Below are positions 3,287 through 36,859 of a stretch of DNA of 64,000 nucleotides, in pieces. Source of the stretch: Phycisphaerae bacterium (GTDB lineage: Bacteria > Planctomycetota > Phycisphaerae > SM23-33); NCBI GenBank assembly GCA_041687095.1, contig JAWLCQ010000001.1, forward strand, positions 25,664 through 89,663, written 5' to 3'. The notes beneath the pieces were generated by a model. That model searched no databases and was not told the DNA's origin. It worked only from the letters and a program-made list of their open reading frames with translations. Numbering within the stretch: the first letter of the stretch is position 1; the number at the start of each line of letters is the position of its first letter. Both the position numbers and the translations under genes were made by a program.

Positions 3287-3315
3287 TTGTCCGGTGGGGG
3301 ATCCCGTGGTAGAGT
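3287..3315 (+). promoter_or_regulatory. Putative sigma70-type promoter for the cold-shock gene (TTGTCC-N17-TAGAGT)
   Basis: TTGTCC at 3287-3292, a 17-nt spacer and TAGAGT at 3310-3315, preceded by a T-rich UP-like tract (tttttgtccggtttttcc) in an AT-enriched island. This would give a roughly 155-nt leader. Confidence 0.3.
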
Positions 3316-3475
3316 ACCGCAGTGAATGGATCGGACCGGGGAGGACGGCATTTCGGTTCACGGGTCTGATCGTGCGGTGTTTCATGTCGCCGGTGACCGG
3401 TCTTGGGTGCATGCCGCGCGGGTACTCTGCGCGGTGCGATCAGGCAAGGCTGCGAGGGCAGTGGAGAGTGGTGGT

Positions 3476-3721
3476 ATGACCAAGGGCACCGTCAAGTGGT
3501 TCAACAATGCCAAGGGGTTCGGGTTCCTGCGCACCGAGGAGACGGCGGACGATATCTTCGTTCACCATACCGCCATCGAGTGCGACGGCTACCGGACCCT
3601 GAAGCAGGGCGAGCCGGTGGAATTCGATCTGGTGACGGGGCCGAAGGGCCTGAAGGCCGAACACGTGATCCGCCAGATGCAGGCGGCGCACGCGGCGGCG
3701 CAGCAGCAGGCTCCGGCGTAG
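3476..3721 (+). CDS. cspA: Cold-shock protein, CspA family (S1-like cold-shock domain)
   Basis: MTKGTVKWFNNAKGFGFLRTE..DIFVHHTAIE..GYRTLKQGEPVEFDL carries the RNP1/RNP2 motifs of CspA. The ATG at 3476 is in frame with ORF 3326..3721; the upstream part of that ORF is leader. Confidence 0.9.
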   Translation: MTKGTVKWFNNAKGFGFLRTEETADDIFVHHTAIECDGYRTLKQGEPVEFDLVTGPKGLKAEHVIRQMQAAHAAAQQQAPA

Positions 3722-3726
3722 GCGCC

Positions 3727-3748
3727 CCGAGCGGCGGCAGCGGCTCGG
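3727..3748 (+). terminator. Possible intrinsic terminator hairpin after the cold-shock gene
   Basis: ccgagc-ggcggcagc-ggctcgg GC-rich stem-loop 6 nt after the stop codon. There is no U-tract, as is typical of high-GC genomes. Confidence 0.3.
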
Positions 3749-3808
3749 AAGGCGTCCGCCCCCGAATGGGAAGGCGGCCGGGCGGGCGGGACGGCCGTGG
3801 CGGTTCCG

Positions 3809-4513
3809 CTACGCGTTCTCCGCGTGCAGTGGCAGGAACTGGGCCCACAGCGCCTCGAAGGACGCGGTGAACGCGCCTGCCAGGTTCGCGTCCTCGCACA
3901 GCAGGATATTCTCCTGGTTGTACTCGGCGGCGCGGCGGGTCCAGTTGTAGCTGCCCGTCAGCACCTTGCCGGCGTCGAACACGGCGAACTTGTGGTGCAT
4001 GTGGTACTCGGCGGAGTCGGTCCGCACGGGGATCCCCGCGCGAATGAACCGATCGATGTCGCTCCCCCGGGCTTGCGCCTTCTGATCGTCGGTGATGATC
4101 CGCACCGCCACCCCCCGCCGGTGCGCCTCCAGAATCGCCGTCGCGATCACATCGTGCGTGATGGAGAACACGCACACGTCGACGGTCCGATGGGCGGCCT
4201 GGAAGAGCCCGACGATGGTGGCGGCGCAGTCGTGCTCGGGGGCGAAGCGGGCCTGGAGCATCGGCCCCGCCGCCGGGGCGGGCAGCGCCGCCCACACCGC
4301 CTTCACCACCCCTTCCAGCCAGTCCGCCACCGCCCGGTCCTCCACGCACAGCCGCTGCCGCGCCACGTCAAACGCCTGCGCCTGCAGCCACAGGGCCTTC
4401 TGGGCGTTGAGTTCCGCCTCGCGCAGCATCTGCCCCAGCACCCGCTTCTCGCCGCGCGACAGGCAGTGGTCGTCCAGCGTGCGATTCAGAATCTCGTCCA
4501 GACCCTCGATCAT
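3809..4513 (-). CDS. Phospholipase D-like (single HKD motif) family protein: PLD/Nuc-like phosphodiesterase or phosphatidyltransferase
   Basis: HMHHKFAVFD...GSYNWT is a canonical HxK(x4)D(x6)GSxN HKD motif. The start at MIEGLDE is preceded by a perfect SD, AAGGAGG-7nt-ATG. The longer ORF-track start (4630) would overlap the upstream gene. Confidence 0.75.
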   Translation of the reverse strand: MIEGLDEILNRTLDDHCLSRGEKRVLGQMLREAELNAQKALWLQAQAFDVARQRLCVEDRAVADWLEGVVKAVWAALPAPAAGPMLQARFAPEHDCAATIVGLFQAAHRTVDVCVFSITHDVIATAILEAHRRGVAVRIITDDQKAQARGSDIDRFIRAGIPVRTDSAEYHMHHKFAVFDAGKVLTGSYNWTRRAAEYNQENILLCEDANLAGAFTASFEALWAQFLPLHAENA

Positions 4514-4589
4514 GCTCGCGCCTCCTTTGCCGTGCGCCCTCAAGACGTCCCTGCGGGAGGCACTCCGCTCCCCCCGGCCCTGTGGGGTT

Positions 4590-5756
4590 CTACCGGTCCG
4601 CCTCCAGCAGGTGAAGGATCTCTTGTACAACGATCTGGCTCGAGGGTCGACGGAGTTCTCGCACCGACCGGGACATGGCGTGCAGACGGGAGGGGTCGGC
4701 GAGGAGGGCGGCGACGGTCGAGGCGGTCTGGCGGACGGAGTGGGTGATGATGGCCGCGTTATGGCTTTCCGCCCAGCGCGCGTTGCCTCGCTCCTGCCCC
4801 GGGATGGGGCGGGGCAGGACCATGGGGGTTCCGCGGGCGAGGCACTCGGAGACGGTCATGCCTCCGGGCTTGGTGATCATGAGGGCGGCGAGTTCGGCGA
4901 GTTCGTGGAGGCGGTCGGTGAAGGGGACGGGCTTGAGGGAACCGGCGGCGGCCTCGGGGAGGCGGGCGAGGCATCCGAGGAGCCGCTTGTTGCGCCCGGC
5001 GAGGACGGCGACGAGGGCGTGGGGGTGCTCGCGCAGGACCCGCCGGGCGGTGGGGACCACCGGGCCGCACGTGAACTCCGTCCCGCCCGACAGCAGGACG
5101 AGCGGGCGGTCGGCGGGCAGGTCCCAGCGGGCGCGAGCCTCGTCACGATCGACCGGGGCGAGCCATTTGCCCGCGATGGGGATCCCGCTGACCGTCACCC
5201 GCTCGGGGGGGATCCCCCACGTCCGCAGGTGCTCGCGGGCCTCTTCGCAGGGAACGCACCAGCGAGCGACGTCCTCGCAGTGCCACCAGCGGTGGACGTC
5301 GAAATCGGTGACCACGACCATCTGCGGACAGCGGAGGCGTCCCTGGCGGATGAGCCGGCGGACCACGGGCGGGGCGAGGAAGTGCGTGTGGACGATCAGG
5401 TCGTAGTCCCGCTGCAGCAGCCACTGCTCGAACGCGCGGAGGCGGCGGGCCTCGAAGGCGAGCCTGACCCGCTCCATCCGCCCCCGCCGCGGCGCGTCGG
5501 GCCGGTTGCTGTACCAGTGGCCCAGCCCGTACAGCCAGGGCACGCGGGTGACGGTGAGTTCGTACCCGCCGCGGTAGACCAGGCGGTACCAGCGGGAGAG
5601 GTGGTCGAGGATATCAATGTGCTCGACCTCGGCGCGGGGGTGCTGGCGGTGCAACTCCTCGACGACGGCCTTGGCGGCATGGGTGTGACCGGCGCCCACG
5701 TGGGCGGAGATCACCAGGACGCGGGGCGGACGCGACGGCGCCTCGGAACCGTTCAT
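4590..5756 (-). CDS. Glycosyltransferase family 28, MGDG-synthase / UgtP-like diacylglycerol glycosyltransferase
   Basis: The N-terminus RVLVISAHVGAGHTHAAKAV matches the MGDG_synth N-domain and the C-terminus is a GT28 C-domain. The true start, MNGSEAP at 5754-5756, overlaps the upstream stop (ATGA). The rest of ORF 4590..6947 is a Pro/Arg-rich read-through. Confidence 0.85.
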   Translation of the reverse strand: MNGSEAPSRPPRVLVISAHVGAGHTHAAKAVVEELHRQHPRAEVEHIDILDHLSRWYRLVYRGGYELTVTRVPWLYGLGHWYSNRPDAPRRGRMERVRLAFEARRLRAFEQWLLQRDYDLIVHTHFLAPPVVRRLIRQGRLRCPQMVVVTDFDVHRWWHCEDVARWCVPCEEAREHLRTWGIPPERVTVSGIPIAGKWLAPVDRDEARARWDLPADRPLVLLSGGTEFTCGPVVPTARRVLREHPHALVAVLAGRNKRLLGCLARLPEAAAGSLKPVPFTDRLHELAELAALMITKPGGMTVSECLARGTPMVLPRPIPGQERGNARWAESHNAAIITHSVRQTASTVAALLADPSRLHAMSRSVRELRRPSSQIVVQEILHLLEADR

Positions 5757-18192: not shown

Positions 18193-18223
18193 TGCTGTCG
18201 CAGGATCCTTTGGGGAACCAAAT

Positions 18224-18258
18224 CCGAAACCCGAAACCCGAAACCCGAAACCCGAAAC
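18224..18258. repeat. Heptanucleotide tandem repeat (CCGAAAC)x5 in an AT-enriched spacer upstream of the DUF58 gene
   Basis: ccgaaacccgaaacccgaaacccgaaacccgaaac, followed by related aaatccaaaacacgaaatccaaatg. Local GC is far below the 70 % background. Confidence 0.7.
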
Positions 18259-18396
18259 AAATCCAAAACACGAAATCCAAATGACAAAAACCAGTCTCCG
18301 ACGCCGCGGGCAACCGGGTGCCCAATGCCACGACTGCGCTGTCTGCCACCGTGCCCCAAGAAACGCTACGGGTTCTGCGAGTCCCTGACGTCTGGG

Positions 18397-20530: not shown

Positions 20531-20591
20531 GAGGAAGCTGTCAGCTCTCAGCTCTCAGCGTTCAGCAGAGGAAGCATCGGCCACGCGGCTG

Positions 20592-20630
20592 TCGCTGAAA
20601 GCTGATCGCTGAAAGCTGAAAGCTGAAAGC
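20592..20630. repeat. Heptamer tandem repeat (GCTGAAA)x4-5
   Basis: gctgaaagctgatcgctgaaagctgaaagctgaaagctg, flanked by (CAGCTCT)x2 at 20551-20564 and (CAGCGAT)x3 at about 20659-20679. Confidence 0.7.
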
Positions 20631-20680
20631 TGCATCTGTTCCCCGATAACCTTCCGATCAGCGATCAGCGATCAACGAAT

Positions 20681-20788
20681 CAACCAGTCAACCAGTCAAC
20701 CAGTCAACCAGTTAACCAGTCAACCAGTTAACCAGTTAACCAGTCAACCAGTTAACCAGTCAACCAGTCAACCAGTTAACCAGTCAAC
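20681..20788. repeat. Octamer tandem array (YAACCAGT) x about 13 immediately upstream of pdxA
   Basis: caaccagtcaaccagtcaaccagtcaaccagttaaccagtcaaccagttaaccagttaaccagtcaaccagttaaccagtcaaccagtcaaccagttaaccagtcaaccaatcaacc: 8-nt unit with C/T alternation at position 1, 108 nt. Confidence 0.8.
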
Positions 20789-20811
20789 CAATCAACCAAC
20801 CACCGATCCTC

Positions 20812-21843
20812 ATGCCAGACGACCGTCCCATCATCGGAGTGACCATGGGCGATCCCCTCGGGATCGGGGCCGAGATCCTCGTCAAGGCCCTGGCCGATCC
20901 CGAGCTTCGCCGGCGGGGGCGGTTCGTTATCTTCGGGGCCAGCGAGCAGCTCGCCTACACCGCCGACCAGCTCGAACTCGACTTCCCCTTCTTCCGCGAC
21001 CACCACGAGAACGTCCGCCGCTACCTGCACGACGTGGTGGTCCTGGACTACGACGAGATCGCCATCCCCCCGGCCATGGAGCGCGGGCCCTCGCGGGTGG
21101 GGGGGGAGGCCAGCTTCCGCTTCGTCGACGATGCCATCGCCGCCGCCCTCGCCGGGGACCTCGACGCCCTCGTCACCGCCCCCATCTCCAAGACCTCCTG
21201 GGCGCTGGCGGGGGTCAAGAAGTACCCCGGGCACACCGAACTCCTCGCCGACCGGACCAAGACCAAACGCGTCGCCATGATGTTCGCCTCCTCCCGCCTG
21301 AAGGTCGCCCTGGCGACGATCCACGAGCCCATCGCCCGCATCCCCAACCTTTTCAACATCGGGTGCGTGCACACCCCCATCGACCTCGCCGACCAGGCCC
21401 TGCGCCAGTGGTGGGGCATCGCCCGCCCGCACATCGCGGTCTGCGCCCTGAACCCCCACGCGGGGGAGGAGGGGCGGTTCGGGGACGAGGAGGAGCGGGT
21501 GATCGGGCCGGCGATCCTCATGGCCCGCGAGTCGGGGATCGACGTCTCCGGCCCCTACCCCGCCGACACGCTCTTCCTGCGGGCGTCGCGCGGGGAGTTC
21601 GACTGCGTCATCGCCATGTACCACGACCAGGGGCTCATCCCCATGAAGCTCCTCGCCTGGGACGAGGTGGTCAACGTCACGCTCGGCCTGCCCATCCTCC
21701 GCACCTCCCCCGGGCACGGGACCGCCTTCGACATCGCCGGCAAAAACCGCGCCGACGCCTCCTCCTTCACCGCCGCCGTCCGCCTGGCGCTGGACCTCGC
21801 GATCCGCCGCCGCGGTCCGCAGCCGCCCCCGACCGCCGCGTAG
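20812..21843 (+). CDS. pdxA: 4-hydroxythreonine-4-phosphate dehydrogenase
   Basis: PdxA signatures across the full length: IGVTMGDPLGIGAEI, ALVTAPISK, GHTE, HIAVCALNPHAGEEG, MYHDQGLIP, SPGHGTAFDIAGK. Confidence 0.9.
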   Translation: MPDDRPIIGVTMGDPLGIGAEILVKALADPELRRRGRFVIFGASEQLAYTADQLELDFPFFRDHHENVRRYLHDVVVLDYDEIAIPPAMERGPSRVGGEASFRFVDDAIAAALAGDLDALVTAPISKTSWALAGVKKYPGHTELLADRTKTKRVAMMFASSRLKVALATIHEPIARIPNLFNIGCVHTPIDLADQALRQWWGIARPHIAVCALNPHAGEEGRFGDEEERVIGPAILMARESGIDVSGPYPADTLFLRASRGEFDCVIAMYHDQGLIPMKLLAWDEVVNVTLGLPILRTSPGHGTAFDIAGKNRADASSFTAAVRLALDLAIRRRGPQPPPTAA

Positions 21844-21867
21844 GTGGCGGACGGGAAACGGAAGGGC

Positions 21868-22097
21868 CTCACGCAAAGGCGCAAAGGCGCAAAGGGAAGA
21901 AGAGGCAGCGGGAAGAAGAAGCCTGCACCGTCCCGCGCACGGCGCGCTTCATGGACGGGATGGACTCGATGGACAGTATGGACGCCATGGACCCGCGGGG
22001 TTCCGCTGTGCGGTCCTCTGCGTAATCTTGAAATCTGTGCAATCCCTCTCTCTCCGAGCTGTTTCTTCCCCTTCGCGCCTTTGCGCCTTTGCGTGAG
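21868..22097. repeat. About 30-bp near-perfect inverted repeat (arms 21868-21899 and 22065-22097, each containing (GCGCAAAG)x3) flanking about 165 bp that include a 23-codon Met-Asp-repeat micro-ORF
   Basis: Arm 1 is ctcacgcaaaggcgcaaaggcgcaaagggaag; arm 2 is cttccccttcgcgcctttgcgcctttgcgtgag (the reverse complement, with one indel). Between them ATGGACGGGATGGACTCGATGGACAGTATGGACGCCATGGAC is an in-frame MDGMDSMDSMDAMD... ending in TAA at 22022. Confidence 0.6.
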
Positions 22098-22250
22098 ACT
22101 TCCCCCGGTTCCCGGTTCCTGGCTCCTGGTTCCTTGGTCCCCCGGTTCCCCGGTTTCGACATTCCCGTACTCCCGCCCTCCCTCCCGCGGTAAATTTGCA
22201 TTTCGCGTCTAAGAACGTCCCTCCTGCGTCGTGATAGGGGATGGAGACCG

Positions 22251-22802
22251 ATGCGGCTCCGGAGACGCTGCATGAAGGGAGACAACCGCGAGGCGGACTG
22301 GGTTCGGTCCGCCATGGCCCGCTACGAGGGCCCCCTGCTCCGCTATGCGTTGCGCATCTGCGGGAGCGAGGAGTGCGCCCGCGACGTCGTGCAGGACACG
22401 TTCCTCCGCATGATCGAGCACAAGGGCCCCGGCGACGACCACCTCGCGGAATGGCTCTTCACCGTCTGCCGCAACCGTGCCATCGACCTCTGCCGAAAGG
22501 AACGGCGAATGACGCAACTGGACGCACCCATCGACACCGCCGCCTGCCCCGCCCCCCCGCCCCCGGCCCTGGCGGCGGCCGCTGAAACCGCCGCCGCCGT
22601 CGCCTCCGCCCTCGACCACCTGCCCCCCAACCAGCAGGAGGTCCTGCGGCTGAAGTTCCAGGACGGGTTCTCCTACAAGCAGATCTCCTCCATCACGGGG
22701 CACTCCGTCTCCAACGTGGGGTTCCTGATCCATACCGGTATCCAGACGCTCCGCCGCTCGCTGCGATCCAGCAGCCCCTCGGCGATCGGGGAAGGAGTCT
22801 GA
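22251..22802 (+). CDS. ECF-type RNA polymerase sigma-70 factor
   Basis: Region 2 (ARDVVQDTFLRMIE, WLFTVCRNRAIDLCRK) and region 4 HTH (LPPNQQEVLRLKFQDGFSYKQISSITGHSVSNVGFLIHTGIQTLRR). GGAG SD before the ATG at 22251; alternative start at 22272. Confidence 0.85.
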   Translation: MRLRRRCMKGDNREADWVRSAMARYEGPLLRYALRICGSEECARDVVQDTFLRMIEHKGPGDDHLAEWLFTVCRNRAIDLCRKERRMTQLDAPIDTAACPAPPPPALAAAAETAAAVASALDHLPPNQQEVLRLKFQDGFSYKQISSITGHSVSNVGFLIHTGIQTLRRSLRSSSPSAIGEGV

Positions 22803-22804
22803 TC

Positions 22805-25800
22805 ATGACGCACGACGACTCACACGACACGATCGCCCCCGCTTTGCTCACCGCGTACGCCCTGGGCGAGTGCGACGAGACGGAGCGGTCCACCGTCGAA
22901 GCCTACCTCAACGCCCACCCCGCCGTACGCGAGGAACTGGAGGACACGCTCCGGATCGGCGGCCTGCTCTCCGAGAGCTTCGCGTCCGAACTCGAAGCGC
23001 CCCCGGTGCTGTCGCTCACCGATGAGCAGCGAAACGCGATTGCCTCCGTAGCGGAGAATCGTCCTGCTCCTCAACTGCCCTGCGCAGTGGCGCAGTGTGG
23101 CGAACCGTCCCGTTCCGCTCGTTCCGCCCCTCCGCCGCTGCGCCGCTCCCTCCGCCTGTGGGTTCCGCTGTCGATGGCGGCGGGACTGGTGCTGGGACTG
23201 GCGGTTATGCACGTTATCCTGGGTTCCGGGGCAAGGGGGACCCCGGAGCCCCACGCTGAAATCATCGTGGCCGGTGCGACCAACGCCGCCACCTCCCCGC
23301 CTCCCGCGCCTGCCCCCGCGGCGGGCGAGGCCCTCGCCGCAGACGAGCCCTCCCTCGCCGCCGGCGAAACCCCGCTGCGCCCGTCCGTCGTACTGGACCC
23401 CGCCCGGGAGACCTCCCCGGACGCCGTCACGCTGGCGGGGAACATCGAAAACGCCCCCGCGATTCCCGGTGAGCCCCCGCGCATCCTCGCCGTTCCGCCC
23501 CCGCCCGTGGCTGCGGACCAGATCGTCTCGCAGATGCGCTTCTCCGAGTCCGACCCCAACGGAGGAAAACCGCTCCTGGACCTGGAGGCCGACTACGCCT
23601 TCCGCTCCGGCAGCGAGCGCTTCCTCCGCCGCCCCGCACCGAAGCGCCCGCAGGTGGCGAGCAACACCATCCAGTACATTCAGGAGCAGCACGAGGGGCT
23701 GCTGGCCCCCAACGCGGGAACGCCCGTGCTCGACCTCACCGTCGACTACGCCCGCGACGGGCTGGACGCCTACCTCCGCCACGCCCTGCCCGATCGGCCG
23801 ACTGTCGCGTACCAGAACGCGGACTACGTCCTGCAGCGGCACGGGGGGCTGATGGCGGCGACTGGCGTCAACAACTGCACGTACGTTGCGGATCAGCATG
23901 GGGGACTGCTCGCGCCCAACGTGGTCACCAATGGGTGTTTGGTCATGGACCGCCACGGTGGGTTGCTGGCGATTGACGGGACAGGGACCGCGGTGATTCC
24001 CTCTCCCGCGGAGTCCACGGGGACACGGGTAACGGGTCTGCTGGTCACGCCCCCCGACTATGTCGGGGGGGTGAACTGGAGCTTGGAGGACACCCTTCGG
24101 ACGCAGTCCGGGGGCGTTGGGTCGCTCACCGTCGGCGGCGAGGGTCGGGACATACACGGTACGTTAACCCGTGGTGCGAGTACTGCCTGCCTCTCCGACC
24201 TCGCCGCCGGCGGTGGGCTTTCGCCCGGCCTTTCCAGCGAACCACAGTACTTCTTCGGTCTGGCGGGCGAGCTGCACATCGGTGGGGAGTACACCCTGGG
24301 GACTCTCGTCCCGACGGCGGGGATCGGCGACTGGGACGCCGACGGCAAGGGGACGTACGAGGCCCCCGGCATCGTCTACAAGAGCGGTGCCGACAGCATA
24401 CTGGACCTCACAGGCGTGACGAGCACCTACACCAGTGGGACGAACATCATCGGCGGCAAGGTGAAGATCGCCTCCAGCGACGCCGTGGAGCCCTTGGCGG
24501 CCGTCGATGTCGAAGCCCTCAAGGAGCAGGCCCGCTCACGCATTTTGGAAAGTCGCTTCGAGGAAGCTCTCCAGGACGTCAACCAGATCCTCCGTCACGA
24601 TCCCCAGAACGCCTTCGCCGCCCAGCAGCAGGTCCTGCTGGCCAACCTCGTCAACGTCCGCCGCGAACGTCGACACCGCCTGGCACTGGGGGCAGGCGAT
24701 GTCTACGGCTGTCGCGAGATCCGCGGGAAGATCAGCGACAACGGACCCGATATGGGCAACCTGATCCTCAACAGCGGCGGAACGTTGAACGGGACCCGCG
24801 AGGTGACGCTGCTGAACCGCGAGAACGACTTCAGCGGCGATGTCACGATGGGCGGGGGCACGCTGCAGATCATCGCCGGAGCCATCCCCTCCGCGACGGA
24901 CCTGATTCTCAACGGCGGCCATGCCACGGTTGCGCCGCCTGCCACAGGCAGCGGCCGCCGGCGCGACCCGCTTCCGTGGTACGACCTGCTCCGCTATCCG
25001 TCCAACTGGGGCAGCACCGGCTGGGCGGGCGAAGCGGGGGGGGCGCCGGTCGCCTCGGACAACGACGCGGATCAGCGTGCGTGGGAGCGACTGAACACGC
25101 GCGTCCCGGAACTGGACCTCCACGGGGTGTCCCTTCGCGACGCGATGGATTCCCTGCGGGACATTACCCAAGCCAACCTGCACGTGAAGTGGCTCGCCCT
25201 GCAGGATGCGGGCATCGATGAGAACATCGAGGTGGAGAACCTGAAGCTCACCGACGTGACCGCCCGGGACGCCCTGCGGGCGCTGCTCGATGCGATCTCC
25301 ACCCAATCCGGGGCGACGGAGGGAGATGCGCTGGCGTACGTCGTCGAGGACGGCGTGGTGACGATCTCCACGGCCAAAGACATCGCCAGGCCCACCATCA
25401 CCCGCGTCTATGACGTGCGCGGTGTGATGTGGCAGGTTCCCGACTTTGATGAACTGATCCGCGATCTCGGGGCGGAGGCGGGCCCCGGTGTGACGGTCGA
25501 TAGCGGGCTGCTATTCGCAGCCGGGCATGGGAGCGCGGATGTGCTCTCTCGCAGCGAAACCGGCCCTTTCATCGATACCACGATCGCCACGTTCTCCGAC
25601 GGAGCACGCCTGCCGTCCGCGCAGATCACCCAAATCACGCTGTTCGGGGACGACGACGACGGCTGCACCCGCTCGGAACGGATGGACAAGATCCGCAGGA
25701 TCATCGCCCAGAACGTCGCCCCGGAGACCTGGGTGCCTCACGGAGACATCGGGGCCTTTAGTGAGTTGAGCGGGCAACTGGTGGTGACCCAAACCCCCCG

Positions 25801-27586
25801 GAACCACGCCGCCGTCGCCAGCCTCCTCGAACGCGTCCGCCAGACCCGATCCCTTCGGCAGATGCGCCAACAGGAACGCCCCGGTGCGTTCGTCCTCTGC
25901 CTCGCTACCCCCGCCGCCGAACTCCGCATGCTCCTCAACACCGCCGTCGTGCACAACGACGACGTCGATGCGATGCGCTGGCAGCCCGCCGAGGCGGTGC
26001 GTGTCCCCGACCCCGCGGCCCGCAAGCGGGGCGAGTGGATCGCGGGGCGATTGGGCGAACTGGGCGCCGCCGCCCGCGTCGACCCCGCCGGGCGCGTCAT
26101 CGTCGAACGCGTCCCGCGCCCGGACAGCGAGGGCCACCAGCGCGAGGCGTACGCTCACATCGACGAGAACCCCTTCCGCCCCGTCACCACCGAGCCCGTC
26201 TCCACGTTCTCCATCGACGTGGACACCGCCTCGTACTCCAACGTGCGGCGGATCCTCGGGGAGAACCGCCTCCCGCCCCCCGGCGCCGTCCGCGTCGAAG
26301 AGATCGTCAACGCCTTCCCGTACCGCTACACCCCGCCCCCCGAAAACGCCGACCACCCCTTCGCCGTCCACACCGCCGTCGCCCGCTGCCCGTGGAACGG
26401 GGGCAACCGCCTCGTCCGCGTCGCCCTCAAGGGCAGGGAGGTCTCCGAGGACAAACGCCCGCCCGCCAACCTCGTGTTCCTGCTCGACACGTCGGGGTCG
26501 ATGTCCAGCCCGGATAAGCTCCCGCTGGTGAAGGAGGCGATGCGGCGGCTGGTGCAGCGGCTGGGCGAGAAGGACCGCGTCGCCATCGTCACCTACGCCG
26601 GGAACGCCCGCGTCGCCCTCGAGTCCAGCCCCTGCCACCTCCGCACCCCCATCCTCACCGCCATCGACGCCCTCCAGTCGGGCGGGTCCACCAACGGGGC
26701 GGGCGGAATCCGCGAAGCCTACCGCCTCGCCGCCGAGGGCTTCCTCAAGGACGGGATCAACCGCGTGATCCTCTGCACCGACGGGGACTTCAACGTGGGC
26801 GTCACCAGCGAGAGCGAACTCGTCCGCCTCATCCAGGAGCAGGCGAAGGGCGGGGTCTTCCTCACCCTCCTGGGGTTCGGGACCGGAAACCTCCAGGACG
26901 ACCGCCTCGAAGCCATCGCCGACAAGGGCAACGGGCACTACCACTACATCGACTCCCTCGACCACGCGGACCGCATCCTCGGGACCGGTCTCACCGGGAC
27001 GCTCCTGACCATCGCCAAGGACGTGAAGATCCAGGTGGAGTTCAACCCCGCCCGCGTGTCCAGCTACCGGCTGATCGGGTACGAGAACCGCGCCCTCGCC
27101 CGCGAGGACTTCAACAACGACCGCAAGGACGCGGGCGAGATCGGGGCGGGGCACACCGTCACCGCCCTCTACGAGGTCGTCCCCGCCGATGCCCCGCCCC
27201 CGCCCGACGCGCCCCCCGCCCCCGACGCCCTCCGCTACCAGCGCCCCGCGGGTCTGAGCGACGCAGCCCGCAGCGATGAACTGCTCACGCTCAAGCTCCG
27301 CTACAAGCAGCCCGACGGGGACACGAGCATCCTCATGGAGCAGCCCGTGAAGGATGGGGCCGGGGAGCTGACGGACTGCGAGTTCCGCATGGCGGCGGCG
27401 GCGGCGTCGTTCGCGATGATCCTCCGCGACTCGCGGCACGCGGGGACGTTCACGCTCGATGCGGTGGACGAGATGGCGCTGTCGGCCCGCACGGACGCCG
27501 ACGCCCGCCCCGCCGACTGGAACGCCGCCGTCGCCGATTTCCGGACGCTGGTGCAGAAGGCCAAGGAACTGCTCCCCGGGCGGTAG
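22805..27586 (+). CDS. Anti-sigma factor fused to a large extracytoplasmic region: N-terminal anti-sigma domain, one TM helix, repeat region, STN-like domain, C-terminal YfbK-like VWA (DUF3520)
   Basis: The start is 2 nt after the sigma stop. Anti-sigma N-domain (LLTAYALGECDETERSTVEAYLNAHPAVREELEDT), TM LWVPLSMAAGLVLGLAVMHVIL, four copies of Q(Q/R/D)HGGLLA(P/I)N spaced 20-50 aa, STN-like LDLHGVSLRDAMDSLRDITQANLHV, VWA MIDAS LVFLLDTSGSMSS...GGSTNGAGG...LCTDGDFNVG. Confidence 0.8.
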   Translation: MTHDDSHDTIAPALLTAYALGECDETERSTVEAYLNAHPAVREELEDTLRIGGLLSESFASELEAPPVLSLTDEQRNAIASVAENRPAPQLPCAVAQCGEPSRSARSAPPPLRRSLRLWVPLSMAAGLVLGLAVMHVILGSGARGTPEPHAEIIVAGATNAATSPPPAPAPAAGEALAADEPSLAAGETPLRPSVVLDPARETSPDAVTLAGNIENAPAIPGEPPRILAVPPPPVAADQIVSQMRFSESDPNGGKPLLDLEADYAFRSGSERFLRRPAPKRPQVASNTIQYIQEQHEGLLAPNAGTPVLDLTVDYARDGLDAYLRHALPDRPTVAYQNADYVLQRHGGLMAATGVNNCTYVADQHGGLLAPNVVTNGCLVMDRHGGLLAIDGTGTAVIPSPAESTGTRVTGLLVTPPDYVGGVNWSLEDTLRTQSGGVGSLTVGGEGRDIHGTLTRGASTACLSDLAAGGGLSPGLSSEPQYFFGLAGELHIGGEYTLGTLVPTAGIGDWDADGKGTYEAPGIVYKSGADSILDLTGVTSTYTSGTNIIGGKVKIASSDAVEPLAAVDVEALKEQARSRILESRFEEALQDVNQILRHDPQNAFAAQQQVLLANLVNVRRERRHRLALGAGDVYGCREIRGKISDNGPDMGNLILNSGGTLNGTREVTLLNRENDFSGDVTMGGGTLQIIAGAIPSATDLILNGGHATVAPPATGSGRRRDPLPWYDLLRYPSNWGSTGWAGEAGGAPVASDNDADQRAWERLNTRVPELDLHGVSLRDAMDSLRDITQANLHVKWLALQDAGIDENIEVENLKLTDVTARDALRALLDAISTQSGATEGDALAYVVEDGVVTISTAKDIARPTITRVYDVRGVMWQVPDFDELIRDLGAEAGPGVTVDSGLLFAAGHGSADVLSRSETGPFIDTTIATFSDGARLPSAQITQITLFGDDDDGCTRSERMDKIRRIIAQNVAPETWVPHGDIGAFSELSGQLVVTQTPRNHAAVASLLERVRQTRSLRQMRQQERPGAFVLCLATPAAELRMLLNTAVVHNDDVDAMRWQPAEAVRVPDPAARKRGEWIAGRLGELGAAARVDPAGRVIVERVPRPDSEGHQREAYAHIDENPFRPVTTEPVSTFSIDVDTASYSNVRRILGENRLPPPGAVRVEEIVNAFPYRYTPPPENADHPFAVHTAVARCPWNGGNRLVRVALKGREVSEDKRPPANLVFLLDTSGSMSSPDKLPLVKEAMRRLVQRLGEKDRVAIVTYAGNARVALESSPCHLRTPILTAIDALQSGGSTNGAGGIREAYRLAAEGFLKDGINRVILCTDGDFNVGVTSESELVRLIQEQAKGGVFLTLLGFGTGNLQDDRLEAIADKGNGHYHYIDSLDHADRILGTGLTGTLLTIAKDVKIQVEFNPARVSSYRLIGYENRALAREDFNNDRKDAGEIGAGHTVTALYEVVPADAPPPPDAPPAPDALRYQRPAGLSDAARSDELLTLKLRYKQPDGDTSILMEQPVKDGAGELTDCEFRMAAAAASFAMILRDSRHAGTFTLDAVDEMALSARTDADARPADWNAAVADFRTLVQKAKELLPGR

Positions 27587-30715: not shown

Positions 30716-30951
30716 CGGCAGTGGTCCTTGGCCTCGTGGGTCCGGCGCCGCGGCCCAGCCGCGATGTTCTGCTCTGCAGTCATGAACGTCTCCATCCTTC
30801 TCCTCCGCCCGCGGGATGCCCCGGGCGGGCTTCCGCCCCGCCCCGAACTCTCGTCACCCCGCCGGGCGCCGGTCGGACAGTCCCCGAAGCTTACGACACG
30901 CGCACCGCTGGGGTCCAGTGCCCGGACACAATGCCCAGGGCCATCGCATCT

Positions 30952-31096
30952 CCGTGGCACGGGCGTCTCGCCCCTGCGGAGAGGCGAGAACGGCCTCGCG
31001 GCGAGCCCAAGCGCCCCCAATCCACGGGGGTTTCTCCGCCGAAGGCCACGGGCTTTCCTGCCCGTGGGACCCATGGGCGAGACGCCCGTGCCACGG
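30952..31096. repeat. Perfect 22-bp inverted repeat (CCGTGGCACGGGCGTCTCGCCC / GGGCGAGACGCCCGTGCCACGG) separated by about 100 bp, within a 476-bp intergenic region
   Basis: Arm 1 at 30952-30973, arm 2 at 31075-31096. The loop contains a further short hairpin, ccacgggctttcctgcccgtgg. No credible ORF. Confidence 0.7.
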
Positions 31097-31191
31097 AAAT
31101 TCTGTTCACCGCCGTGCTCGCACGAGCGCGGCGGAACAGGGGTCGCAGAACCCCCGGTGCCCTGCGGGTGCGCCCGCGAGAGCGCGGCGGC

Positions 31192-36713: not shown

Positions 36714-36859
36714 TGGTAACCGTTCACGGGGTGCCACCCTCAAGCGGCGCCGTTCAGCCGCTTGGGGGTGCTGCGGCGTGGGGAGCCCCACACCCCCAAG
36801 CCGCGAACAGCATGCGGCTTGAGGGTGGCACCCGGTTTGAACGGTCCCGTGAACGGTTA
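36714..36859. repeat. 146-nt nested triple palindrome (three concentric stems) between the rhamnosidase stop and the nucleoside hydrolase start
   Basis: Outer arms ggtaaccgttcacggg / cccgtgaacggttacc, middle arms gtgccaccctcaagc / gcttgagggtggcac, inner arms ccgcttgggggtg / cacccccaagccgcg. Coordinates are approximate to within 1-2 nt. Confidence 0.75.

Follow-up and report, generated by a model that had tools for sequence, protein, structure and literature searches.

Palindromic intergenic repeats that are tied to a nuclease gene are a kind of genetic element which is already known: in the repetitive extragenic palindromes (REP) and the REPINs built from them, short palindromes are dispersed between genes, most copies are gene-less, and a nuclease-type gene, that of the REP-associated tyrosine transposase (RAYT), is flanked by the same repeats. 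RAYTs are relatives of HUH/Y1 transposases, and REP sequences are species-specific. Short tandemly repeated repetitive (STRR) sequences are intergenic tandem arrays described, as heptamers, for heterocystous cyanobacteria, and miniature inverted-repeat transposable elements (MITEs) are small non-coding units with terminal inverted repeats which are present in several copies in a genome and have longer, gene-carrying relatives. The intervening sequences of 23S rRNA that contain an open reading frame (ORF), known from Coxiella and Leptospira (S23p), hold an ORF of approximately 120 aa within terminal inverted repeats which form a stem of approximately 28 bp; they are regarded as sporadic, horizontally acquired selfish elements, and their stem is cut by RNase III (PMC4990558). 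Here a 230-nt feature (positions 21868-22097) is described which lies between pdxA and a gene for an extracytoplasmic function (ECF)-type sigma factor in a 64,000-nt (64-kb) stretch of contig JAWLCQ010000001.1 from a Phycisphaerae bacterium, the whole of which is referred to below as the window. The original prediction for this feature was a leader-peptide attenuator; the comparisons given here indicate that it is probably one copy, without a gene, of a palindromic repeat element that is widespread, and not a leader-peptide switch.

The feature is bounded by two arms of 29 nt each with 172 nt between them, complementary at 28/29 positions (97%), which agrees with the near-perfect inverted arms of about 30 nt originally noted. 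The left arm (21868-21896; CTCACGCAAAGGCGCAAAGGCGCAAAGGG) is composed of a closing CTCA, (CGCAAAGG)x3 and a G, and the right arm (22069-22097; CCCTTCGCGCCTTTGCGCCTTTGCGTGAG) of a C, (CCTTYGCG)x3 and a closing TGAG (inverted repeat I1). The octamer arrays themselves occupy 21872-21895, as (CGCAAAGG)x3, and in complementary form 22070-22093; Tandem Repeats Finder (TRF) gave a period of 8 and 3.0 copies, and the unit can be written as GCGCAAAG or CGCAAAGG, both describing one and the same array. The single arm mismatch is A.C when the + strand is read and G.U when the - strand is read. This arm pair ranked first among the inverted repeats reported across the window, where the 23-nt core of the arm was present at two places only (0.00 matches expected from shuffled sequence).

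Pairing extends beyond the arms in both directions. Inwards, a purine-rich segment (21899-21916; GAAGAAGAGGCAGCGGGAAG) pairs with 22050-22066 (CTCCGAGCTGTTTCTTC), so that the stem reaches approximately 21916/22050, as seen both in the minimum free energy folds of the two strands and among the inverted repeats (I2, I5 and I8); outwards, GGAAG (21860-21864) is predicted to pair with CTTCC (22099-22103), and the stem totals approximately 45 bp when the inner and outer pairing are included. Folding stability had been put forward as a check on the original prediction, and the arms were predicted to fold stably on either RNA strand, at -133.8 kcal/mol (z -8.6) for the + strand and -131.7 kcal/mol (z -8.5) for the - strand of the element, with -69.4 kcal/mol (z -6.4) for the single-stranded DNA. 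The direct repeats that had been reported downstream of the hairpin are also present, in the form of a CCGGTTCC-like tandem array of 7-8-nt units (22103-22155, approximately 7 copies by TRF) which abuts the right arm. The sequence directly after that arm is TGAGACTTCCCCCGG, and the flank beyond the left arm holds just an incomplete complement of the array (GGGAAACGG); no CCGGTTCC array was detected when the other fetched loci were searched.

As had been suggested with the original prediction, the arm sequence was searched for elsewhere: the 23-mer CGCAAAGGCGCAAAGGCGCRAAG was screened on both strands against one genome per GTDB species (596 Gb) and was found in at least 120 stretches from at least 11 phyla, and in a further 35 stretches of viral contigs. 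The hosts among the matches listed include Acidobacteriota (including Pyrinomonadaceae), Cyanobacteriota (including Nostocales), Myxococcota (Sorangium), Chloroflexota, Planctomycetota, Verrucomicrobiota, Bacteroidota, Pseudomonadota (alpha-, beta- and gamma-Proteobacteria), Chlamydiota and Desulfobacterota, together with others, and the hairpins lie mostly beside unrelated genes. An independent local origin of the window feature, by which its arms would have arisen through slippage and palindrome formation and would resemble the others by convergence, would suit a repeat-prone genome, the neighbouring spacers being full of other 7-8-nt tandem arrays. Against it, identity over 23 nt was expected approximately 0.03 times in the collection (our own estimate), compared with at least 120 matches, and the arm order, the closing pairs (CCTCA/TGAGA) and the copy number are those of the family; convergence of this kind is considered extremely improbable.

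The family has a consistent architecture. Among 145 arrays, the complementary partner array (CCTTTGCG) was located within 1.5 kb downstream in 87 and upstream in 15, and the standard form can thus be given as 5'-(CGCAAAGG)n-loop-(CCTTTGCG)n-3', which is identical on both strands. Members were defined by arms of at least two tandem C[G/A]C-N-[A/G]AG-N units (CGCAAAGG and close variants) with a complementary 3' arm, the purine-rich arm coming first on either strand, and by 4-5 extra base pairs outside the arrays with the consensus TCTCA...TGAGA. The window element has both this arm structure and closing pairs of this kind, the latter (CCTCA/TGAGA) being of a type observed in other members, and on sequence grounds it is placed within the octamer-arm family. 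In 78 hairpins the first three positions beyond the arrays were paired in 83-91% of cases, pairing falling to background by positions 6-8, and each closing position used three or four alternative Watson-Crick pairs (for the first: A-T 40, C-G 16, G-C 6 and T-A 3).

Most copies, that of the window included, are short and gene-less. The loops of the hairpins range from 10 to approximately 270 nt and differ from one lineage to another without any relationship; in some of them further hairpins, made of other short tandem units, are nested. In the Planctomycetota metagenome-assembled genome (MAG) OFTM393, four gene-less copies share the same arms and the same 40-nt loop in unrelated flanks and are flanked by GTTCCNGGAAC motifs, while in Sorangium genomes the copies are embedded within a larger shared palindrome. 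A stop codon lies 12-31 nt ahead of the start of many copies, among them the window copy (24 nt), and the spacers that hold them are convergent, co-directional and divergent in numbers of 12/20/7, which is near random; both statements are based on rough ORF calls. Annotated plasmids gave no meaningful match to the element, the window had no match in Rfam (the best relaxed hit was a chance plant microRNA with 33.8 bits, where the gathering score is 137), and the arm sequence was found in no paper in a literature search. Arrays of other units were also seen at family loci: in a Thermoguttaceae MAG (L065, 1038-1322) two heptamer arrays, each (AAATTGC)x5.7, at 1038-1077 and 1283-1322 have an octamer-armed hairpin (1128-1240) lying between them, and paired heptamer arrays of other units occur in several other loci.

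Some members enclose a gene. Loops of approximately 420 nt in Nostoc (L024) and Nodularia (L095) hold a 125-aa ORF, and an ORF of the same family lies directly beside the arrays at four further loci (L052, L057, L003 and L074). This ORF was assigned to TIGR04256, 'GxxExxY protein' (148 bits), and to PF13366, PDDEXK_3 (143 bits), a PD-(D/E)XK nuclease. The association was then measured in a sample of 80 metagenomic GxxExxY genes chosen without reference to the arms, 71 of which had both flanks. A tandem octamer array (C[G/A]C-N-[A/G]AG-N) was present within 130 nt of 63/71 of these genes, compared with 7/660 control windows from the same contigs. The enclosing order, with a purine array before the gene and a pyrimidine array after it, was observed at 33/71 genes, and the reversed order, in which the gene lies between two complete hairpins, at 14/71. 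An example of the latter is an island in a Deltaproteobacteria MAG (L003, approximately 3300-4900), where at least five octamer-armed hairpins are interleaved with a GxxExxY gene, itself between two hairpins, and with a small ORF bearing CxxC pairs, which we take to be zinc-finger-like (it was not checked against a profile library). Taken at the level of sequence, the family spans phyla and viral contigs, its arms are tightly linked to GxxExxY genes, and its gene-less copies multiply within a genome.

The arms occasionally bracket small genes other than GxxExxY, namely KGK-domain genes and small phage ORFs. In Cylindrospermum sp. NIES-4074 (L046, 986-1954), two tandem KGK-domain genes (PF08872) each have TCTCA(CGCAAAGG)3 a few nt before the ATG, and one CCTTTGCG arm follows the second gene.

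The GxxExxY family is very large, with 8000 of 8000 scored candidates at E <= 1e-10, and its catalytic D...ExK motif was 99-100% conserved in 79 sequences. No related solved structure was found by sequence; an AlphaFold model (predicted local distance difference test, pLDDT, 93) gave only weak best matches in the PDB, all at E >= 0.01, to alkaline and lambda exonucleases, the Cas4 protein SSO0001 and a splicing endonuclease, and profile searches gave faint Cas4-like matches only. Proteins from Nostoc (Cyanobacteria), Pyrinomonadaceae (Acidobacteriota), Verrucomicrobiota and Deltaproteobacteria (P0133-P0252) are 69-75% identical over the full 125 aa, an unusually high value across phyla which suggests recent horizontal spread. 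This fits the 'multiple transfers' reported for PDDEXK_3 in a 2012 survey of PD-(D/E)XK proteins, where the function of the family was given as 'Unknown' (PMC3424549). GxxExxY genes are rare on annotated plasmids (8 records). The repeats are not mentioned in the papers on GxxExxY and PDDEXK_3 that were consulted, and an earlier notice of them in the curation of TIGR04256 is possible.

It is the sequence of the arms, and not their pairing alone, that is conserved across phyla, which argues for recognition by a conserved protein rather than for a structural need alone; since the highly conserved GxxExxY nuclease gene is almost always flanked by the arms, its product is the obvious candidate for the recogniser. 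The window copy would then be selfish, non-autonomous DNA of the REP/MITE kind which landed in the spacer between pdxA and the sigma factor gene, 24 nt past the pdxA stop codon, and its spread would depend on its arms being recognised as a hairpin or cruciform, the most plausible trans-acting recognisers being GxxExxY nucleases. As a wider and more tentative proposal, which we consider possible and less likely to be right than wrong, octamer hairpins and GxxExxY proteins may together form an undescribed, horizontally spreading selfish system of hairpin and nuclease across at least 11 phyla and phages, in which the nuclease would recognise the tandem CGCAAAGN arms, either in DNA that forms a hairpin or cruciform or in the stem of an RNA, and would mobilise or process its own cassette and the gene-less copies.

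Compared with the systems described above, the family shares with REP/RAYT the dispersed short intergenic palindromes, the nuclease-type gene flanked by the same repeats and the predominance of gene-less copies. It differs in that the associated gene encodes a 125-aa PD-(D/E)XK protein (PF13366) and not a RAYT, in that at least 11 phyla share one 8-nt unit, repeated in tandem to form the arms, and in that GxxExxY genes are present in several copies and not in one. Tandem arrays of 7-8-nt units between genes, as in STRR sequences, are abundant in the window too (18220-18258 and 20533-20798), whereas the unit of this family is an octamer, arranged in paired inverted arrays, found across phyla and linked to a gene family. 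The gene-carrying form resembles the 23S rRNA intervening sequences in being a small ORF in a stem of at least 24 bp; the ORF here is a PD-(D/E)XK protein, theirs a four-helix bundle, and the window copy has no ORF of this kind. A strict assignment to the 23S rRNA intervening sequences was ruled out, an rRNA match being found at 0/40 GxxExxY loci and nowhere in the window. A family whose arms are built of tandem octamers, whose partner is a PD-(D/E)XK protein and whose unit is shared between phyla and with phages seems to be undescribed.

The original prediction had offered, as its second option, that the arms are the terminal inverted repeats of a small non-autonomous element. This was largely right in kind, and the family is MITE-like in being a small non-coding unit with terminal inverted repeats, multi-copy within a genome (OFTM393) and with longer gene-carrying relatives. 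The likeness to MITEs is incomplete: the arms are tandem arrays, the palindrome extends into the flanks, no target-site duplication was seen, and the gene-carrying relatives encode a small PD-(D/E)XK nuclease and no known transposase.

Several observations weigh against the interpretation of the window feature as a mobile, gene-less copy served by GxxExxY nucleases. No target-site duplication was found at the window copy, whose flanks (GGAAGGG and CTTCCCC) are complementary, or at the four OFTM393 copies; the flanks continue the palindrome rather than showing direct repeats. For a comparison of filled and empty sites, exact look-ups of the sigma, PdxA and VWA proteins, and of database entries 100% identical to them, led to no contig, and the closest PdxA is 74% identical and lies on a contig that is not syntenic. 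There is one copy only in the 64-kb window, and its loop resembles no other copy among the fetched loci. A GxxExxY gene was located within 8 kb at only 7/120 of the arm loci listed (approximately 5%), so that the trans-acting link is one of association, and a profile search (E <= 10) detected neither the gene nor a remnant of it in the loop or in the whole window. In the arms of gene-carrying members, mismatches on the gene sense strand were divided between approximately 30 of the G.U type and 33 of the A.C type (our own tally), and this lack of a wobble bias does not speak for RNA-level selection. Single arms also occur immediately ahead of the start codons of various genes, especially in viral contigs, for which simple mobility is no explanation: in the viral contigs L283-L317 (for example L308, L310, L314 and L316), lone (CGCAAAGG)3 arrays without a nearby partner lie 5-20 nt before phage start codons, which suggests that they function at translation-start regions or favour them.

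The missing nuclease gene could also be explained if the window feature were a decayed GxxExxY cassette, from which the gene was lost by internal deletion, and not a copy propagated without a gene. The arms are common to gene-carrying and gene-less copies, and damaged cassettes do exist (L057 and L052). Decay of this kind is nevertheless judged improbable, as the GxxExxY profile finds nothing in the loop or the window and the four same-loop, gene-less copies of OFTM393 indicate that gene-less units do multiply.

The position of the copy close behind pdxA (20812-21843, + strand; PF04166, 328 bits) bears on another explanation, that the hairpin is a host-serving RNA element at the 3' end of the pdxA transcript, where it would be processed by RNase III, block 3' exonucleases or insulate the sigma factor operon from pdxA, and that it is kept by selection; this would be compatible with a selfish origin. 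The start 24 nt after the pdxA stop codon, the many members that begin 12-31 nt after a stop codon, the folding of both RNA strands (z approximately -8.5), the covariation of the closing base pairs and the similarly built 23S rRNA intervening-sequence stems that are cut by RNase III (PMC4990558) all favour such a role. It is opposed by the near-random distribution of spacer orientations, by the absence of a wobble bias on the gene sense strand and by the identity of the arm sequence across phyla, which structural need alone would not lead one to expect, and on balance we consider it unlikely. If the copy is instead a gene-less repeat element, as preferred here, its likely sole local effect would be a double-stranded stem of approximately 45 bp in any transcript reading through from pdxA, where it would be a potential RNase III target or 3' stabiliser comparable to the stems of the 23S rRNA intervening sequences.

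The attenuator originally proposed would work through translation of a Met-Asp micro-ORF within the hairpin, controlling read-through into the sigma factor operon. Its basis in the sequence was confirmed: ATGGAC occurs five times in the loop at 9-nt spacing (21951-21995), in frame and opening a micro-ORF of 24 codons (MDGMDSMDSMDAMDPRGSAVRSSA; 21951-22025, + strand) which ends in TAA, and this very stable hairpin around a short ORF lies upstream of, and is co-directional with, the sigma factor gene. The likeness to the trp and his leader-peptide attenuators goes no further than a short ORF and, near it, a strong hairpin, both upstream of an operon. No purine-rich ribosome-binding sequence was found in the 20 nt before the micro-ORF, and the micro-ORF had no match in Pfam; there are no alternative hairpins or other alternative pairing scheme and no regulatory codon logic. 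On the + strand, the 3' end of the large stem had no terminator-like site in a scan for terminators and is not followed by a T-run, and the two small matches of the scan, on the - strand, both lie inside the element. An intrinsic terminator was ruled out by the lack of a T-run at the 3' end of the large stem, and no sigma-70-type promoter was found at the element.

The five ATGGAC motifs belong to a nonamer tandem array, (ATGGACNNN)x5 (21951-21995; direct-repeat family D1, 0 expected by chance). Viral contigs contained 86 arrays of (ATGGACNNN)>=4, many of them ordinary coding repeats; 20 had at least three different NNN, as in the window, and 9 had in-frame stop triplets. An inverted GTCCAT partner array was detected near the (ATGGACNNN) array at two loci (L215 and L233), the first of which, on a viral contig, has a hairpin (1193-1305) with arms (ATGGACNNN)4 and (NNNGTCCAT)4, whose nonamer unit is that of the window loop. 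Three viral (ATGGACNNN) arrays lie near octamer arrays, and in L240 (ATGGACNNN)x5 is followed 80 nt on by a CTTTGCG arm. As ATGGACNNN arrays elsewhere carry stops or form hairpin arms, the in-frame ATGs are a property of the repeat unit and are no evidence of a peptide. The array is best regarded as repeat DNA and not as a coding requirement, the Met-Asp ORF being a by-product of a second repeat module, and the micro-ORF is probably not translated.

The operon downstream points the same way. The ECF-type sigma factor gene (22251-22802, + strand; Sigma70_r2 and Sigma70_r4_2) begins 154 nt after the element and is followed by a gene for a 1593-aa protein with von Willebrand factor type A (VWA) and YfbK_C domain matches (22805-27586, + strand). 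Three Phycisphaerales-like contigs (L318-L320) have the same conserved sigma/VWA gene pair, and their sigma-upstream regions contain neither an inverted repeat nor an octamer array. When the four sigma upstream regions were aligned (alignment A2), the sole common block was CTAAGAA...GCGTC(A/G)...GGGG, which in the window reads CTAAGAAC ... GCGTCG ... GGGG (22209-22243, + strand) and starts 112 nt downstream of the end of the hairpin. This block is a candidate promoter and may be that of the sigma factor gene itself; if so, the hairpin, being upstream of it, would lie outside the sigma transcript. The CGTCTAA motif which the original prediction had pointed out as a possible ECF promoter element is present at 22206-22212, and its CTAAGAA part is conserved in L318-L320; its CGTC is not, the invariant CGT of the four loci being the second one (22227-22229). 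The attenuator is thus opposed by arms that are a generic repeat beside unrelated genes in many phyla, by related operons that have no hairpin, by a shared upstream block that lies downstream of the hairpin, and by an element that is not conserved with its operon, in addition to the lack of a terminator and of a ribosome-binding sequence; we give it almost no credence and it is not retained.

For the sigma factor operon this outcome is deflationary, in that what looked like an unusual leader-peptide switch would be a repeat element lying upstream of the promoter region. Of wider interest is that the arms tie the window copy to a very large protein family, GxxExxY/PDDEXK_3, of function listed as 'Unknown' (PMC3424549). 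The bracketing of GxxExxY genes by one conserved 8-nt tandem repeat across phyla offers a concrete and testable hypothesis as to their substrate. A class of spurious small ORFs is also explained, in which translations run through the arms and give strings such as LCAFAPLR or AKAQRRKG, and octamer-arm repeats would be worth masking or modelling in genome annotation and in searches for RNA motifs.

Other repeats were observed in the window. In the spacer upstream of pdxA, a second hairpin (20533-20632) has arms of tandem heptamers, (CAGCTCT)x3.4 and (GCTGAAA)x5.6, and shows a recurring mismatch that, on the minus strand, reads as a G.U wobble. It is followed at 20655-20798 by (CGATCAG)x3.4 running into (TCAACCAG)x15.9, a long octamer array without an inverted partner which ends 13 nt before the pdxA start codon and has a GC content of 0.47, compared with approximately 0.70 in the surrounding genes. 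Another spacer holds a heptamer array, (AAACCCG)x5.6 (18220-18281). From the arrays at these three places, the intergenic DNA of the source genome appears rich in STRR-like tandem repeats of 7-8 nt. Two further inverted repeats lie elsewhere in the window: one at 30948-31100, of 29 nt with 93% complementarity and a 95-nt loop, whose arms (CGTGGCACGGGCGTCTCGCCC) are internally palindromic and which may be a member of another dispersed hairpin family, and one at 36726-36836, of 23 nt with 91% complementarity and a 65-nt loop (ACGGGGTGCCACCCTCAAGCGGC / GCGGCTTGAGGGTGGCACCCGGT), with AACGGTTC / GAACGGTT further out.

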